From Candidatus Rokuibacteriota bacterium (GTDB lineage: Bacteria; Methylomirabilota; Methylomirabilia; Rokubacteriales; CSP1-6), in contig JACPCX010000155.1 of the NCBI GenBank assembly GCA_016184305.1, positions 1-31,546 of the forward strand: a stretch of DNA of 31,546 nt, read 5' to 3'. Below, one piece after another: positions 25,764-31,546 of this stretch (position 1 is its first letter; each line of letters begins with the position of its first letter). The notes beneath the pieces are model-generated. The model searched no databases, was not told the DNA's origin, and saw nothing but the letters and a program-made list of their open reading frames with translations. The position numbers were made by a program, and so were the translations under genes.

Positions 25764-28700
25764 GTGACGTGTCCGCGGTGCCAGAGCGGCAACCGCCCGG
25801 GAATCAAGTTCTGCGAGGAGTGCGGGGCCCGCCTGGCCCTCGCATGCCCCTCCTGCGGCGCCGAGGTCCTCCCGGACCGGAAGTTCTGCGGCGCTTGCGG
25901 CGGGGCCCTGGCCGAGAGGCCCGCCGGCCGGACCGCCTCGCCACAGGCCTACACCCCGAAGCACCTCGCCGAGAAGATCCTCGTCTCCAAGAGTGCGCTG
26001 GAGGGCGAGCGCAAGCAGGTCACCGTGCTCTTTGCCGATCTCAAGGGCTCCATGGAGCTGCTCGCCAACCGCGACCCGGAAGAGGCCCGCCGGCTCCTGG
26101 ACCCGGTCCTCGATCGGATGATGGAGGCCGTCCACCGCTACGAGGGCACTGTGAACCAGGTCATGGGCGACGGGATCATGGCGCTCTTCGGGGCGCCCCT
26201 CGCCCACGAGGACCACGCGGTGCGCGCCTGCTATGCCGCGCTCCGGATGCAGGAGACGGTGGGGGGGTACGCCGAGGAGCTGCGCCGGACCCAGGGGCTC
26301 GACGTCCAGATCCGCGTGGGCCTCAATTCCGGCGCGGTGGTGGTCCGCTCCATCGGCAGCGACCTGCACATGGACTACACGGCCGTGGGGCAGACCACGC
26401 ACCTCGCCGCGCGCCTGGAGCAGCTCGCCCGTCCCGGGACGACGCTGATGACGGCCAACACCCTCCGGCTCGCCGAGGGCTATGTGGAGGTCCATCCGCT
26501 GGGGCCCGTGCCGGTGAAGGGCCTCGCCGATGCCGTGCAGGTCTATGAGATCGTGGGCGCGGGGCCGGTGCGCTCCCGGCTGCAGGCCGCCGCCGCCCGC
26601 GGACTCTCCCCCTTCGTGGGGCGCGATGGGGAGATCGACGTGCTGCGCCAGTCGCTGGAGCCCGTGCAGGACGGCCACGGGCAGATGGTGGCCGTCGTCG
26701 GCGAGCCTGGCGTGGGCAAGTCGCGGCTCTTCTGGGAGTTCACCCACTCGCATCGGCTTCACGGCTGGCTGATCCTCGAGGGGAGCGCTGTGTCGTATGC
26801 GCGGCTCACCTCCTACTACTCGGTCGTCGATCTCCTCCGCGGCTACTTCCAGATCGACGATCGCGACGACGCCCGCAGGATTCGCGAGAAGGTCACGGGC
26901 AAGCTTCTCACGCTGGACGAGGCGCTTCGGCCCACGCTGCCGACCTTCCTCGAGCTCCTGGACGTGCCCGTGGAGGACCCGGAGTGGCAGGCGCCCGATC
27001 CGCCGCTCCGCCGCCAGCGGACGCTGGAGGCCGTCAAGCGGCTCCTCCTCCGCGAGAGCCAGGTGCAGCCGCTGGTGCTGGTGTTCGAGAACCTCCAGTG
27101 GATCGACTCCGAGACCCAGGCCTGTCTCGGCCACCTCGTCGAGGCCCTGCCGACGGCGCGTGTCCTGATCCTGGTCAATTACCGGCCGGAGTACGAGCAC
27201 CCGTGGGGCGGCCGGCGCTACTACACCCAGCTCCGCCTCGATCCGCTCCCGCCCGTCACCGCGGGCGCCCTCCTGCGCGCGCTCCTGGGAGACGACGCTT
27301 CGCTCGAGCCCGTCAAGCGCCTGCTGATCGAGGGCACCGAGGGCAACCCGTTCTTCATCGAGGAGGGCGTCCGCATGCTCATCGAGACGCAGGTCCTCGC
27401 CGGGGAGCCCGGTGCCCATCGTCTGGCAAAGGCGCTCACGACCATCGAGGTGCCCGCCACGGTGCAGGCGGTGATCGCCTCGCGCATCGACCGGCTCGCC
27501 CCCGAGGAGCGGCGGCTCCTGCACGCCGCCTCCGTCATCGGCAAGGACGTGCCGCTGGTCCTCCTGCGCGCCGTGGCGGACCTGCCGGAGGACGCCCTGC
27601 GCGAGAGCCTCACGCGGCTTCAGGCGGCCGAGTTCCTCTACGAGACGGGGCTGTACCCCGATCTCGAATACACCTTCACCCACGCGCTGACGCACGACGT
27701 GGCCTACGGCACGCTGCTCCAGGAGCGGCGCCGCGCGCTCCACGCCCAGATCCTCAGGACCATCGAGCGCCTGTCTCCCGATCGCCACGCCGAGCAGGCC
27801 GAGATGCTGGCCGATCACGCGTTCCGCGGCGAGGTGTGGGACAGGGCCGTGCCCCACCTCCGCAAGGCCGGCGCCAAGGCGGCGGCGCGCTCCGCCAACG
27901 TGGAGGCCGTCGTGTATCTGGAGCGGGCGCTCACCGCCCTGGGGAAGCTGCCGGAGAGCCGCGAGACGACGCAGGAGGGCATCGACCTGCGCCTGGAGCT
28001 GCGGCCGCCGCTGCTCCAGCTGGGGGATCTGCCGAAGGTGCTCGCGGTGTCGCAGCAGGCCGAGAACATGGCCAAGCTGATCGGCGACGAGGCGCGGCTG
28101 GCGCGGGTGTATAGCTACCTGATCAATTACCACTACCTCAAGGGCGAGCCGGAGATGGCCATCGCCTACGGCGAGCGCTGCCTCGCCATCGGCGAGGCCG
28201 GGGCCGACGCGGCGCTGCAGGCGATGGCGCGCAGCTACATCGGCTACAGCTATCACGCGCGGGGTCAGTACCGTGAGGCCGAGACGATCCTCGCCCGGAA
28301 CGTGGAGAAGCTCGAGGCCATGCGCGCCCTCGAGGGCGCGGGGCCCCAGACGGTGATCTCCTACGTGAGCTCGAGCGGCTGGCTCGCCTTCACGCTGGCC
28401 GAGCTCGGGGACTTCGACCAGGCGCGCGCCTGCGCCGACACGGCCGAGCGGACGGCGGAGGCCGAGCGCCACGCCTACGCCCAGGCGATCGCGTGGAGCC
28501 TCGGGGGGCTCGTGGCGCTACAGCGCGGGCATCTGGACCGGGCGCTGCACTTGCTGGAGAAGAGCCTCGAGACCTGCCGGACCAAGCAGCTCACGGTATG
28601 GCAGCCGATCCCGTCATCGCTGCTCGGGCTCACTCAGGTCCTTCTCGGCCGGCCGGAAGAAGGGCTGCGTCTCCTGGAGGACGGGGTCGCGCGCACCGAG

Positions 28701-29378
28701 GCGCTCGGCGTGAAGGCGTACCTCGCGCTCTGGGCGGCGCAGCTCGGCGAGGGCCTCGTCGCCGCCGGCCAGGCCTCCCGCGCGTTCGCGGCGGGCGAGA
28801 AAGCGCTCAGCCTCGCCATCGCCCACAAGGAGCGCGGCCACCAGGCCCGCGCGCTCCGGCTCCTGGGCGAGGTCGCCCTGCGCAGCCATCCGCCGGATCT
28901 GGCGAAGGCGGGGCAGGACTTCGCCCAGGCCCTCGCGCTGGCGGAGGAGCTCGGCATGCGCCCGCTCGCCGGTCGGATCCGCCTCGGGCTCTGCCAGCTC
29001 CACCTCGAGACGGGACACCGCCCCCAGGCCGAGGAGCACCTGATCGCCGCACTCGCCCTGTTCCGCTCGCTCGACATGCGCTTCTTCCTCGCGCAGGCGA
29101 CGGCCGAGCTCAAGCGCCTCGGGCACATCTTCGTCGTGGCCCACCACAACCTCGGTCTCTTCGAGTTCCTCAAGGAGAAGTTCGCCGGCGATGGCGAGGT
29201 GACGGTGATCCTGGATCGGCGGGGCAGCGAGCGCCGGGGCGACGGGCCCCCTTCCGCCTCCGAGCGGGGCCGTGCCGAGCGCCGTTACCCCGGCTCGGGT
29301 GACGGCGCCCTGCGCCTGCGGGGCCTGGTCGTGCTCCCGCGCGAGGCGGGCCCACCGCCGGCGCGCTTCTCCGAGTAG
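25764..29378 (+). CDS. Multidomain signalling protein: double Zn-ribbon, class III adenylate/guanylate cyclase, STAND/AAA ATPase, TPR-like repeats and a small C-terminal domain
   Basis: Four CxxC pairs; ERKQVTVLFADLKGS, MGDG and IRVGLNSG cyclase motifs; GEPGVGKS Walker A; TEGNPFFIEE; YTFTHALTHDVAY; helical repeats. The last two codons and the stop come from the inserted intron. Confidence 0.95.
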   Translation: MTCPRCQSGNRPGIKFCEECGARLALACPSCGAEVLPDRKFCGACGGALAERPAGRTASPQAYTPKHLAEKILVSKSALEGERKQVTVLFADLKGSMELLANRDPEEARRLLDPVLDRMMEAVHRYEGTVNQVMGDGIMALFGAPLAHEDHAVRACYAALRMQETVGGYAEELRRTQGLDVQIRVGLNSGAVVVRSIGSDLHMDYTAVGQTTHLAARLEQLARPGTTLMTANTLRLAEGYVEVHPLGPVPVKGLADAVQVYEIVGAGPVRSRLQAAAARGLSPFVGRDGEIDVLRQSLEPVQDGHGQMVAVVGEPGVGKSRLFWEFTHSHRLHGWLILEGSAVSYARLTSYYSVVDLLRGYFQIDDRDDARRIREKVTGKLLTLDEALRPTLPTFLELLDVPVEDPEWQAPDPPLRRQRTLEAVKRLLLRESQVQPLVLVFENLQWIDSETQACLGHLVEALPTARVLILVNYRPEYEHPWGGRRYYTQLRLDPLPPVTAGALLRALLGDDASLEPVKRLLIEGTEGNPFFIEEGVRMLIETQVLAGEPGAHRLAKALTTIEVPATVQAVIASRIDRLAPEERRLLHAASVIGKDVPLVLLRAVADLPEDALRESLTRLQAAEFLYETGLYPDLEYTFTHALTHDVAYGTLLQERRRALHAQILRTIERLSPDRHAEQAEMLADHAFRGEVWDRAVPHLRKAGAKAAARSANVEAVVYLERALTALGKLPESRETTQEGIDLRLELRPPLLQLGDLPKVLAVSQQAENMAKLIGDEARLARVYSYLINYHYLKGEPEMAIAYGERCLAIGEAGADAALQAMARSYIGYSYHARGQYREAETILARNVEKLEAMRALEGAGPQTVISYVSSSGWLAFTLAELGDFDQARACADTAERTAEAERHAYAQAIAWSLGGLVALQRGHLDRALHLLEKSLETCRTKQLTVWQPIPSSLLGLTQVLLGRPEEGLRLLEDGVARTEALGVKAYLALWAAQLGEGLVAAGQASRAFAAGEKALSLAIAHKERGHQARALRLLGEVALRSHPPDLAKAGQDFAQALALAEELGMRPLAGRIRLGLCQLHLETGHRPQAEEHLIAALALFRSLDMRFFLAQATAELKRLGHIFVVAHHNLGLFEFLKEKFAGDGEVTVILDRRGSERRGDGPPSASERGRAERRYPGSGDGALRLRGLVVLPREAGPPPARFSE

Positions 29379-29463
29379 GGGAGGTCAGCTCGTCCGTCGG
29401 TAGGACGGCCGGCTGCCTCCCCCCTCACAGACCCGAGCGTGCGGAATTGCCGCACTCGGTTCC
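29370..29463 (-). ncRNA. Group II intron domains V and VI
   Basis: DV GGAACCGAGTGCGGCAATTCCGCACGCTCGGGTCT (29463-29429) has the AC bulge. DVI GGGAGGCAGC...GCTGACCTCCC CT-A-CTCGGA has the branch A 7 nt from the 3' end. Confidence 0.92.
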
Positions 29464-30804
29464 TCAGACATGACTCACCGCACCGACCCAGGGCCGAGCG
29501 ATATACGGCCGCTGCAACGGGTACGCGACGAGAAGTTCTGCGTAACGGCGCCAGGGCAGCGTCCGCCCGCGGGTCCGCCGGTTGAGCCACTTACGCCAGA
29601 GCCTCCGAACAGTCCGATAAAACTCCCACAACCGCCGGAAGTTCGTCGGCCGCCCGTAGTACTGGTAGTGGCCCCGCAACATCGCGTTGAGAGCCGCCCA
29701 CTGCTCCACGACCGGCTTGTGCCGGTGTCGCTGACACCATGCCGAAACCCGTTTCAGGCTCCGGCGCAGCCGCTTCCGCATCGTCCGCACGTGGATGGTG
29801 AACTTCCCCCGCCGGCTTCGCCGACAGACGTGGGTAAACCCGAGAAAATCAAACGTGGCCGGCTTCGGCCCCCCGCCCGCTTCCGACTTCGTCAGCGCGG
29901 CCCGCCCAAACTCGATCAGGCGAGTCTTGTCCGGGTGCAGCCTCAGCCCGTACTTCTCGAACCGCTTCCTCAGCACCTCCAGCACCCTCTCGGCATCCTC
30001 CCGATACTGAAAACAGCAAATGAAGTCGTCCGCGTACCGAATTTCGTAGGCCTCGCCCCGCAGCCGCGGCTTCACCACGTCCTCGAACCACTCGTCGAGC
30101 ACGTAGTGCAGGTAGATGTTGGCCAGCAGCGGACTAATCACCTGCCCCTGGCCCACCCCCGTCTGCGTGACCAGCAGCCGTCCGTCCTCCAGTACCCCGA
30201 CGTTGATCCATTTCCCGATCAGCCGGAGTATGCCCCCGTCCCGCACCCGCTTCTCGATCAACTCCATGAGCTGGCTCCTCACGATCGTATCGAAGTACGC
30301 ACTGATGTCCGCTTCCAGCACATAGCCGACCGGCCGCCGACAGATCACCCGGCCGATCTCGTCGAGCGCCTCCTGCGCGTTGCGCCCCGGACGGAAGCCG
30401 TACGAACACCCCAGGAAATCCTGCTCGTAGATCGCCGTGAGCAGCTCCAGCGCCGCCTTCTGCACGATCTTGTCCTCCAGGGCGGGTATGGAGATCGGTC
30501 TCTCCGTCCCCTCCTCTTTCGGGATGTAGACCCTGCGTAGCGGCTGCGCCCGGTACTGCCCGCTCTCCAGCCGATCGTGGAGCTCCTCCAGATTCTCCCT
30601 GACGTGCCCGCCGTACTCCGCGTACGTGACACCATCCACGCCCGCGCTCGCGTCCTTCCGCAAACCCATCCATGCGCGCTCCAACGCCGTCACCGTCAGA
30701 AGATGAGCGATCGAGGTAAACTGAAGTGTCTTGTTCGCCCGAGCCCGTGCGGCTATTCGGTCGAGTCCCGTTGACATGTTTGCTCGATCTCTGAGTACCG
30801 CCAT
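29464..30804 (-). CDS. ltrA: Group II intron reverse transcriptase/maturase, no endonuclease domain
   Basis: SAGVDG, RRVYIPK, EDKIVQ, SYGFRPGR, ADISAYFD, QGQVISPLLANIYL, YADD, LHPDKT, FDFLGF and X/thumb RGHYQYY motifs. No HNH domain. Alternative start 30777. Confidence 0.97.
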   Translation of the reverse strand: MAVLRDRANMSTGLDRIAARARANKTLQFTSIAHLLTVTALERAWMGLRKDASAGVDGVTYAEYGGHVRENLEELHDRLESGQYRAQPLRRVYIPKEEGTERPISIPALEDKIVQKAALELLTAIYEQDFLGCSYGFRPGRNAQEALDEIGRVICRRPVGYVLEADISAYFDTIVRSQLMELIEKRVRDGGILRLIGKWINVGVLEDGRLLVTQTGVGQGQVISPLLANIYLHYVLDEWFEDVVKPRLRGEAYEIRYADDFICCFQYREDAERVLEVLRKRFEKYGLRLHPDKTRLIEFGRAALTKSEAGGGPKPATFDFLGFTHVCRRSRRGKFTIHVRTMRKRLRRSLKRVSAWCQRHRHKPVVEQWAALNAMLRGHYQYYGRPTNFRRLWEFYRTVRRLWRKWLNRRTRGRTLPWRRYAELLVAYPLQRPYIARPWVGAVSHV

Positions 30805-31436
30805 GTCGCCCTCGACCGGTACGTCGGTCTGTTCCCTCCTTCCCTCCCGTGGGTCCCGGCTCTCACCAGTTCCCCACGCTCGTTGGTACTACGAGGTCGT
30901 AAGACTCCTCCACGCCCGTCCCGGCCGTCTCCGGTCTCCCTCGACGGCCCGGTACCTCTCCGCTGAATGCCCGTTCGTTCCCCTGGCCAGGGCATTCACC
31001 CAGCCGGGGCCTGGCCCGTTGCTGTCAGGCGCGCCATGCCTGCTTGGTACGGGAGGAGACGGGAGGTCTCCCAGGTTCCTGGAGAATCCCTGTGAAAGCG
31101 TGCCCCGGGCTAGGGACTCCGGCGGCTCCCAACGACCTCGCCGTATCGGTCGTCCGGATGCTGTCTTCCGCCAGGCTAACGGCGTCGACATCCGCCACGG
31201 TAAACGATTTCGGAGCTGCACCCTCGCGGCCCGCTTCCTCGCTGCCTACGCTTCGCCCCCGCCAGTCGCCCGACGAGAGGCAAGGCTCGCTACCGGCCTG
31301 CCCGCTACGGCTTTGGCCGGGCTGGACTCTCACCAGCTGGACTCTTTCGAGAGGTTTCCGTCAGCTCATGTCGACTTCCCCCTCTCCCAGGCTTAGCCTG
31401 GCGCGATAGCCTGGATTTCCACGGAGCGGAATTCCC

Positions 31437-31546
31437 CTAAGAACTGCCCGAGATCGGCCTCTGTTTGGCCTCCTCGCCGGCGCGGTTGAAGCGTGGGCCG
31501 AGTGCAGTGTCGGCAGCCGCCGTTCCCTCGTAGTTCGGGTCGGCGA
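31437..31546 (-). CDS. Possible 3' end of a convergent gene of unknown function
   Basis: A minus frame is open from the window edge: ADPNYEGTAAADTALGPRFNRAGEEAKQRPISGSS*. No recognisable motif. Confidence 0.3.
   Translation of the reverse strand, partial: ADPNYEGTAAADTALGPRFNRAGEEAKQRPISGSS

Follow-up and report, generated by a model that had tools for sequence, protein, structure and literature searches.

A probably active group II intron with coordinated changes in its catalytic core, one of an AAC-triad lineage, on a Candidatus Rokuibacteriota contig

The 31,546-nt contig JACPCX010000155.1 of Candidatus Rokuibacteriota bacterium (assembly GCA_016184305.1), which as a whole is called the window below, carries a group II intron on its minus strand, running from 31406 to 29370 and thus 2037 nt long, whose ends and catalytic core differ from those usual in such introns (Table 1). 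The protein encoded by the intron is an intact reverse transcriptase (RT)/maturase of 446 aa with a YADD motif. It scores 346.9 bits against the NCBIfam model TIGR04416 for group II RT/maturases (cutoff 300) and 1e-31 against Pfam RVT_1, and it is without an endonuclease domain. Domain I is matched from 31330 to 31107 by the Rfam model RF02005 (group-II-D1D4-6) over the full length of the model, with 133.7 bits, an E-value of 4e-38 and a gathering score of 49. The model for domains V and VI, RF00029, reaches 31.6 bits and stays under its gathering score of 40, which is expected because domain V is altered.

Neither the boundary consensus GUGYG...AY nor the catalytic triad consensus AGC (or CGC in IIC introns) is matched. 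The intron reads UCGCG...GA, bases 3-5 (GCG) being retained, and its 3' terminus is ...CCTACTCGGA, the last base lying at 29370. The triad is AAC at 29461-29459, with G29432 facing the middle A, and the J2/3 linker is UUA in place of RGA. The original prediction had pointed out the start UCGCG at 31406-31402, the 3' end ...CUACUCGGA, the TTA at 30902-30900 after GAGTC, the AAC triad with its middle A opposite G, the intact open reading frame (ORF) and a bulged A 7 nt from the end, and our reading of the minus strand agrees with it in all of these. The domain V hairpin of about 34 nt with its 2-nt bulge is present, and its loop is of 5 nt (CAAUU in the window), as in most relatives. The RF00029 alignment gives a normal domain VI, in which the basal helix is UGAG/CUCG, a UA is bulged and the tail has 2 nt. 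By this alignment and the fold, A29376 is bulged over the 4-bp basal helix as the seventh base counted from the 3' end (7-8 nt is expected), and it is the candidate branch point.

The splice sites follow from pairings with the exons and from an allele without the intron. A hairpin loop in domain I, the exon-binding site EBS1 (GUUAGCCUG), pairs at 6/6 positions with the intron-binding site IBS1, AGGCUA, immediately upstream of U31406. This pairing covaries in at least seven retargeted sublineages, as in the relatives (given by locus number) with EBS1/IBS1 UAUCCG/CGGAUA (L017), UCCCGA/UCGGGA (L018), UGCGCC/GGCGCA (L008), UGCGCU/AGCGCA (L009), UAGGAG/CUCCUA (L038) and UACCCG/CGGGUA (L045). For the other end we compared column X of the motif GGAGUC-X-CUAGC, in a domain I alignment of the 28 copies that passed the filters, with the first base of the 3' exon. 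The two form Watson-Crick pairs in 27 copies, and in 28/28 if G.U is counted (EBS3-IBS3 C-G 22, U-A 2, G-C 2, A-U 1, G.U 1), which places the 3' splice site after A29370.

Public contigs were also compared with the region. In X2, a DNA run of the study that is probably the source, from a different sample, one contig (depth 7.3) joins 29369 to 31407 and omits exactly 2037 bases. Its short side is 29 nt, and the joint has a 1-nt ambiguity as the same letter stands at both ends. Beside it there is a contig of the filled junction, 29353-29444, at a depth of 6.0, and an intron-less allele therefore coexists with the intron-bearing allele at the predicted junctions. The intron is bounded by U31406 and A29370, and the junctions predicted from the start are those of the empty-site contig and of the EBS1/IBS1 and EBS3/IBS3 pairings.

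Table 1. Features of the intron and its surroundings in window coordinates
Feature	Position	Strand	Remarks
Whole group II intron	29370..31406	-	5' UCGCG ... GGA 3'; from sequence, empty-site contig and exon-binding covariation
Intron 5' end UCGCG	31402..31406	-	canonical GUGYG; DNA TCGCG, intron nt 1-5
3' tail GA	29370..29371	-	canonical AY; A29370 is gamma', G29371 the penultimate base
J2/3 linker UUA	30900..30902	-	canonical RGA; U30902 is gamma; directly 3' of GGAGUC
Domain V	29430..29462	-	triad AAC 29461-29459, AC bulge, 5-nt loop
Domain VI	29372..29427	-	basal helix UGAG/CUCG, bulged candidate branch A 29376; RF00029 alignment and fold
Domain I segment	31107..31330	-	Rfam RF02005 match
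RT/maturase ORF	29464..30804	-	446 aa, intact, YADD present
EBS1 (UAGCCU)	31173..31178	-	domain I hairpin loop; pairs with IBS1
IBS1 (AGGCUA)	31407..31412	-	last 6 nt of the 5' exon; complementary to EBS1
EBS3 (C, in GGAGUC-C-CUAGC)	31114	-	alignment column complementary to the first 3'-exon base
IBS3 (G)	29369	-	first base of the 3' exon; pairs with EBS3 C31114
Tentative EBS2 (GGAUU)	31085..31089	-	faces AAUCC 31417-31413; possible site, 5-nt complementarity found by script
Cyclase/AAA/TPR gene	25764..29378	+	1204 aa; Pfam Guanylate_cyc, AAA_16, TPR
5' exon	31407..31546	-	end of a repeated element carrying the homing site

The altered bases are not private to the window. When one genome per species was scanned, 523 stretches turned out to encode a relative of the RT, and the best 80 of them, which make up 79 loci (L002-L080), were retained together with 15 added plasmid loci of cultured bacteria. 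Triads and J2/3 were counted among 95 ORF-bearing introns (L002-L093 and the window); domain V could be located in 89 of these, and triad and J2/3 were both read in 73. For three introns (L055, L060 and L065) J2/3 was set by hand to AGA, the match of the regular expression being false. The ends of the introns were read by eye, and scripted calls of 5' and 3' ends, with many false picks, were kept out of the counts.

The triad was AAC in 56 and AGC in 33 of the 89 introns. Where J2/3 was read as well, AAC always went with N-U-A (50/73) and AGC always with N-G-A (23/73), and mixed states were found in 0/73. The linker is UUA in 44, GUA in five and AUA in one of the 50 AAC introns, and AGA in 11, GGA in 10 and UGA in two of the 23 AGC introns. 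That the change from G to U in J2/3 accompanies the change from G to A in the triad, as originally proposed for the window, thus holds in all 73 introns, and the changed bases are common to the whole RT clade of the window and to further clades. Of the 56 AAC hairpins, 45 have G opposite the middle A and 11 have A; of the 33 AGC hairpins, 14 have U opposite the middle G, 16 have A and three have C.

A comparison of 25 distinct domain V hairpins of the AAC type showed that 99.7% of the helix cells are paired, with two-sided changes at 5/12 pairs, and their covariation score was reached by 0/500 shuffles. The hairpin is thus under selection while the mismatch at the A is kept. The 2-nt bulge is kept as a bulge across these 25 relatives, although its first base varies. 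Other features unchanged in the variant lineage are intron bases 3-5 (GCG), the third J2/3 base A, and the first and third bases of the triad.

The ends differ in step with the core. Apart from L061 (see below), all AAC introns that were read by eye at their ends start with U and finish with G-N; these are the introns of the window, L002-L005, L008-L018, L021, L037-L039, L042, L043, L045, L046, L072, L074, L082, L084, L091-L093, L120 and L121. Most start UCGCG, and UUGCG, UAGCG, UCGCU and UCGUU also occur; the base that follows GGA is A, C, G or T in different copies. The canonical relatives have GUGCG starts and AY-type tails. Besides the pair that the original prediction had named, there is a second coupled pair, the first base changing from G to U and the penultimate base from A to G. 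Its pairing of the gamma U with the terminal A stands in part: the gamma and gamma' bases do covary, UUA going with ...GA in the clade of the window, in Alteromonas L084 and in Desulfobacterales/Calditrichia L072 and L074, and GUA with ...GC in L045, Methylocystis L082, Bradyrhizobium L091, Rhizobium L092, L093, L120 and Mesorhizobium L121. However, a U-A pair is nothing special, since the canonical relatives vary through the same pairs (A-U, G-C, U-A in L086 and L089, and C-G in L105, L108 and L109), and it is to be seen as ordinary covariation. The unusual set is U1, the middle U of J2/3, the middle A of the triad and the penultimate G.

The introns are evidently mobile, and the lineage is widespread and polymorphic. 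Several genomes hold more than one copy with unrelated flanks, namely a Terriglobia metagenome-assembled genome (MAG) with 4-5 (L003-L006 and L046), genome G002 with at least three and genome G003 with two. Carriers among the MAGs are, by their labels, Acidobacteriota, Verrucomicrobiota (Chthoniobacterales), Gemmatimonadales, Gammaproteobacteria, Desulfobacterales and Calditrichia, and plasmids of cultured Alpha- and Gammaproteobacteria (Alteromonas, Methylocystis, Rhizobium, Mesorhizobium, Bradyrhizobium) carry them too. Words of the window intron were present in 20 runs of 17 studies from soil, sediment and groundwater, and at least half of the words in 14 runs. The mobility, the presence/absence polymorphism and the head-to-tail RNA junction described below suggest that the ribozyme is catalytically active. 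Taken together it is very likely that the window carries an active and retromobile group II intron, with an RT/maturase that is endonuclease-less and an RNA that is IIB-like, whose core is an alternative, self-consistent one belonging to a large lineage.

In the usual group II core the middle base of J2/3 docks on the middle base of the triad, a G reading a G.U or G.A. In the variant core the middle U of J2/3 would instead read the middle A of the triad, which is opposite G or A, and by register this would put a third-strand U on the Hoogsteen face of an A where there was G on G. The metal ligands are backbone phosphates, and a swap of bases could therefore preserve catalysis. The setting of this contact is known from the intron P.li.LSUI2, where J2/3, triad and bulge form consecutive major-groove triples, A422 (the third J2/3 base) docks on A551 (the first triad base), and gamma is A420 (PMC6224600). 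The J2/3 mutation G421C raised its lariat-3' exon intermediate 4.5-fold over wild type, and deletion of the J2/3 GA nearly abolished splicing in the model intron (PMC6224600). At the 3' splice site three contacts are described, a pair of the last intron base with gamma, a contact of the penultimate base with G1, and a pair of the first base of the exon with EBS3 (PMC3669008, PMC4238363). During the second step in the window intron, U30902 would pair with A29370, and U1 (U31406) would contact the penultimate G29371, replacing the contact between G1 and a penultimate A. Lariat formation would be expected, because the branch A29376 is retained. The excised ribonucleoprotein would then reverse-splice into sites that end in ...AAUCCAGGCUA before the insertion point and continue with G, here the tip of a repeat abutting the stop codon of a gene, and it would presumably use primers of host replication because the protein is without an endonuclease.

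An RNA junction could be observed in two metatranscriptome runs, X15 and X16. Contigs pass from the 5' region of the intron through 31406/31407 to 29373 with two letters in between, and on the RNA strand the joint reads ...CUC-UG-A/UCGCG..., where CUCGGA, the full 3' end with a single change of G to U, is followed by base 1. This is a circle-type, head-to-tail junction of the whole intron and not a branch junction, and it was not seen in the two DNA runs compared. It speaks with moderate strength for the excision of such introns at these ends in nature. Neither exon of the window was covered in the two RNA runs, from which nothing is concluded. One could then suppose that the intron is functional but has shifted from branching to circles or hydrolysis, and that the pair of U1 and penultimate G is an adaptation to that pathway. 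The full-length joint from GGA to UCGCG is the sole RNA junction seen, and circles are documented in endonuclease-less bacterial introns such as RmInt1 (PMC4238363). Against this, every copy read has kept the bulged A followed by the 4-bp basal helix of domain VI, which argues for branching, and that no lariat junction was seen in X15 and X16 says nothing, as assembled contigs cannot cross a 2'-5' branch. We regard a shift away from branching as improbable.

The question of how often the core has changed was approached with two trees. The RT tree has 64 representatives, which remained after 23 near-duplicates had been removed from 87 rows of 390 aa or more and a partial RT of an outer intron. 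The AAC state is found at four places in it, which requires a minimum of 4 changes: a clade of 28 rows that includes the window (support 97), the pair L072 and L074 (support 100), an Alteromonas/rhizobial group (support 95) to which the fully canonical intron L085 of Halomonas sp. PA16-9 stands as sister (support 99), and the singleton L061 from an uncultured Clostridia MAG, which lies inside a canonical Firmicutes group (support 99). The ribozyme tree (47 rows, domains I-III with J2/3 masked) puts all variant introns but L061 into one clade of 32 rows (support 93) with L085 also inside it, and requires a minimum of 3 changes. The plasmid introns nearest to L085 (GUGCG, GGA, AGC, ...AC) are all of the variant type, at 53-57% RT identity. 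The trees fit one old origin with at least one wholesale reversal or re-origin at L085, where all the positions changed together, and with L061. The latter is the sole intron to have AAC opposite G and J2/3 AUA but the ends GUGCG...AC, and its gamma A would face a terminal C. In a search of 301 genomes of its class for relatives of L061, five genomes were found at E<=1e-100, one of them its own; its nearest relative (55% identity) is canonical, and L061 is a singleton. It suggests that the module of triad and J2/3 can switch without the module of the termini.

The same trees leave room for the view that the substitutions are tolerated ones that hitch-hiked from a single ancestor, and that the association is one of shared descent and not of compensation. 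The single ribozyme clade, the deep nodes of the RT tree, which are not resolved, and the alternation of G and A opposite the triad A speak for it. But elsewhere in group II introns no positions are more conserved than these, mixed states were not met, L085 departs at all of them together from its closest relatives, and L061 has changed triad, opposite base and J2/3 together with canonical ends kept. Moreover, the mutations G421C and GA deletion in J2/3 of the model intron disturb splicing (PMC6224600). Hitch-hiking is therefore very unlikely to be the explanation.

Even less can be said for a decaying and catalytically dead copy with its odd bases as private mutations. The RF00029 score is sub-threshold, the intron is antisense to the neighbouring cyclase gene, and no second copy was found in the genome of the window (a MAG that is 88.8% complete). 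However, identical bases occur in all 56 AAC-type introns read, from several phyla and with intact RT genes, domain V has compensatory changes, EBS1 and EBS3 track differing target sites, and filled and empty alleles occur in one metagenome. Decay is thus hardly credible, and the original view of a functional variant ribozyme with compensatory core changes gains support from the conservation throughout the lineage, the covariation and the matching junctions. That the boundaries are mis-called and that canonical GUGYG/AY ends lie nearby has next to no probability: the CUAC at 29378-29375 does resemble an AY end and would give a terminus ...CCCCUAC at 29375, but it was rejected because the RF00029 alignment has A29376 as the bulged branch A and starts the basal helix CUCG at C29375, the partner of the EBS3 column is the base that follows GGA, the empty-site contig omits 29370..31406, and there is no GUGYG adjoining IBS1.

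Some points weigh against an active lineage with a self-consistent core. The proposed U.A(.G) triple and the contact between U1 and G are conjectural in their geometry, and the variability of the opposite base (G/A versus U/A/C) means that there is no simple isosteric rule there. The independent switches are few (3-4), and with the unsettled deep nodes a single ancient event could be behind much of the association; L061, a single copy, could be a decaying one. In the window's own genome, too, a single copy of the intron was found. The RNA contigs are assemblies of relatives 90-99% alike, in which the joint has short sides of 27 and 32 nt and one mismatch. The joint is of the circle type and not a lariat, so that branching is a prediction, and catalysis itself is inferred from genomic footprints of reverse splicing.

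The triad AGC and the J2/3 triple helix are the most conserved part of group II introns and tie them to the spliceosomal U6 snRNA. The design of the active site is common to group II introns and the spliceosome, hence the interest of an altered core. It is possible, though we would not call it probable, that the U.A(.R) triple together with the contact of U1 and penultimate G is a second natural solution for the two-metal active site, with modules that switch in concert. If true, 'AGC' and 'GU...AY' would be one of two self-consistent codes and not chemical necessities. The two cores might then also be mutually incompatible, and variant and canonical introns could coexist and nest without cross-reacting. 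The lineage is a natural double-mutant-cycle data set for three tertiary contacts that so far have been probed mainly by mutagenesis and in a few structures, and it indicates which features of the active site are negotiable. It can be tested at the bench, since cultured strains of the five genera named above carry copies on their plasmids, among them Alteromonas macleodii EZ55 (pAltEZ55, UUA/GA type) and Methylocystis bryophila and Rhizobium etli Mim1 (both GUA/GC type). Tools that expect GUGYG, AY and AGC miss these ribozymes, as with RF00029 here, and therefore annotation covers the RT genes but neither the introns nor their boundaries. Intact intron-encoded proteins (IEPs) for which the tools predicted no boundaries have been noted by two groups (PMC3552965, PMC4028801), and these may include the AAC lineage.

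Among known introns, those of class E/F (IIE/IIF; Cl.be.I2, Ge.ur.I1, Pe.th.I2) are similar in having a small IIB-like ribozyme, a length of the intron near 2 kb and an endonuclease-less RT/maturase of roughly 430-450 aa (PMC3753933, PMC3552965), in their 5-nt and not 4-nt domain V loop, which is named as a peculiarity of E/F (PMC3753933), and in their hosts (Acidobacteria, Proteobacteria, Firmicutes). They differ from the introns described here in the U1, the J2/3 N-U-A, the AAC triad and the 3' G-N, and the class papers, as far as their text was available, mention no altered triad or J2/3 (PMC3753933, PMC3552965). The words 'triad' and 'AGC' are absent from the text of Nagy et al. 2013 (PMC3753933), where the 5' site of Ge.ur.I1 was predicted from the GUGYG consensus. 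The only named E/F intron in our tree, Ni.ha.I1 (F/g3, L083), is canonical and far from the window RT (branch length 2.9).

RmInt1 of Sinorhizobium meliloti (class D) is likewise endonuclease-less and mobile, and it lives in insertion sequences (PMC4238363). It ends CC, off the AY consensus, with a penultimate pyrimidine that its authors called unique among group II introns, and it forms circles and lariats (PMC4238363). It is described as deviating at its 3' end only (PMC4238363), whereas here the first base, penultimate base, J2/3 and triad change together. An S. meliloti plasmid intron in our set (L081, 44.6% identity) ends CUCGAC and not CC. The CGC triad of IIC introns such as O.i.I1 is the one accepted natural departure from AGC, and there too J2/3 differs in parallel with the triad, O.i. 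having AGC where RGA is found elsewhere (PMC4424553, PMC3669008). Unlike in IIC, where the first triad base is changed, it is the middle base, the usual former of the G.U wobble, that is changed here together with the termini, and the RNA is IIB-like with EBS1, EBS3 and probably EBS2. The predicted boundaries of UHB.I2 (CL1/IIB1), 5'-UUGCG..GU-3', make it a published bacterial intron that starts with U and is without AY (PMC7923331). In contrast to the introns described here, it has an IEP of class CL1 and an AGC triad in the domain V legend, and it is a single computational prediction for which the available text describes no coupled core changes (PMC7923331). In the literature searched, with Simon et al. 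2008 and several subscription papers outside reach, no description of an AAC-triad lineage was found. The U12-type AT-AC spliceosomal introns are also a minority class whose terminal bases differ from the norm and covary; they are an analogy only, with a different machinery, and no homology is claimed.

At the site itself, the last two codons and the stop codon of the cyclase/AAA/TPR gene lie inside the intron on the opposite strand. In the empty site (29369-31407) this gene reads ...TTC TAG with its stop codon exactly at the junction. The intron thus sits between the last sense codon and TAG, and in the filled allele the gene gains Ser-Glu and a new stop (29364-29378, 31407-31409). The junction is a CTAG palindrome, and a frame on the minus strand stops there likewise in the empty site. 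In the DNA runs the 5' exon is deeper than the intron, and other left neighbours are also seen. The last 34 nt of the 5' exon (ending ...GUGGAAAUCCAGGCUA, then G) recur without the intron in related genomes (L111, L113, L115); a fourth instance, L112 in an unpublished genome, was left out of account. An ORF in L111 has the repeat about 260 nt upstream of it; this ORF is without a Pfam family and has a weak N-terminal NCBIfam match to IS481/IS630, far below the cutoff. With this weakly transposase-like N-terminus beside the repeat, the homing site looks like the tip of an insertion-sequence-like repeat, and tentatively the repeat is the end of an insertion sequence.

Introns of the lineage were also observed next to or within other introns, and the nested insertions are a further sign of mobility. 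The intron of L017 sits in domain VI (at about 860-1000) of a second member of its family. In L020, L034 and L035 the variant intron is interrupted directly after domain V by a different intron that begins with GUGCAG..., and in L023 another intron begins just past the 3' end of the variant one. The Bryobacterales MAG loci L077-L080 and L075 hold twintrons, where a canonical intron (GUGCG, AGA, AGC, ...AAU) lies within domain I of a variant intron (UUGCG, GUA). A UUGCG start for the AGC-type intron of L075-L080 was considered and rejected, as a comparison of L077 with L082 shows the twintron, the UUGCG being that of the outer variant intron. The outer intron of L079 is seemingly without an ORF, its domain V (AAC, ...GC) following directly after domain III.

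A few copies seem to be damaged. Past the basal domain VI helix L028 reads CUCG-AU..., where the near-identical L027 has CUCG-GA, and it may have a damaged or interrupted 3' end. The copy L006 is without the first intron base (CGCG after GGGCUA), its 3' part is replaced by other sequence, and it is probably dead, in a family that is otherwise active. Finally, in most relatives (e.g. L003, 2880-2990) domain VI is enlarged by an insert of some 50 nt, which contains a conserved hairpin capped by GAAA and a CAUGG/CCUAA motif that we take to resemble a tetraloop receptor; domain VI of the window is short and without this insert.

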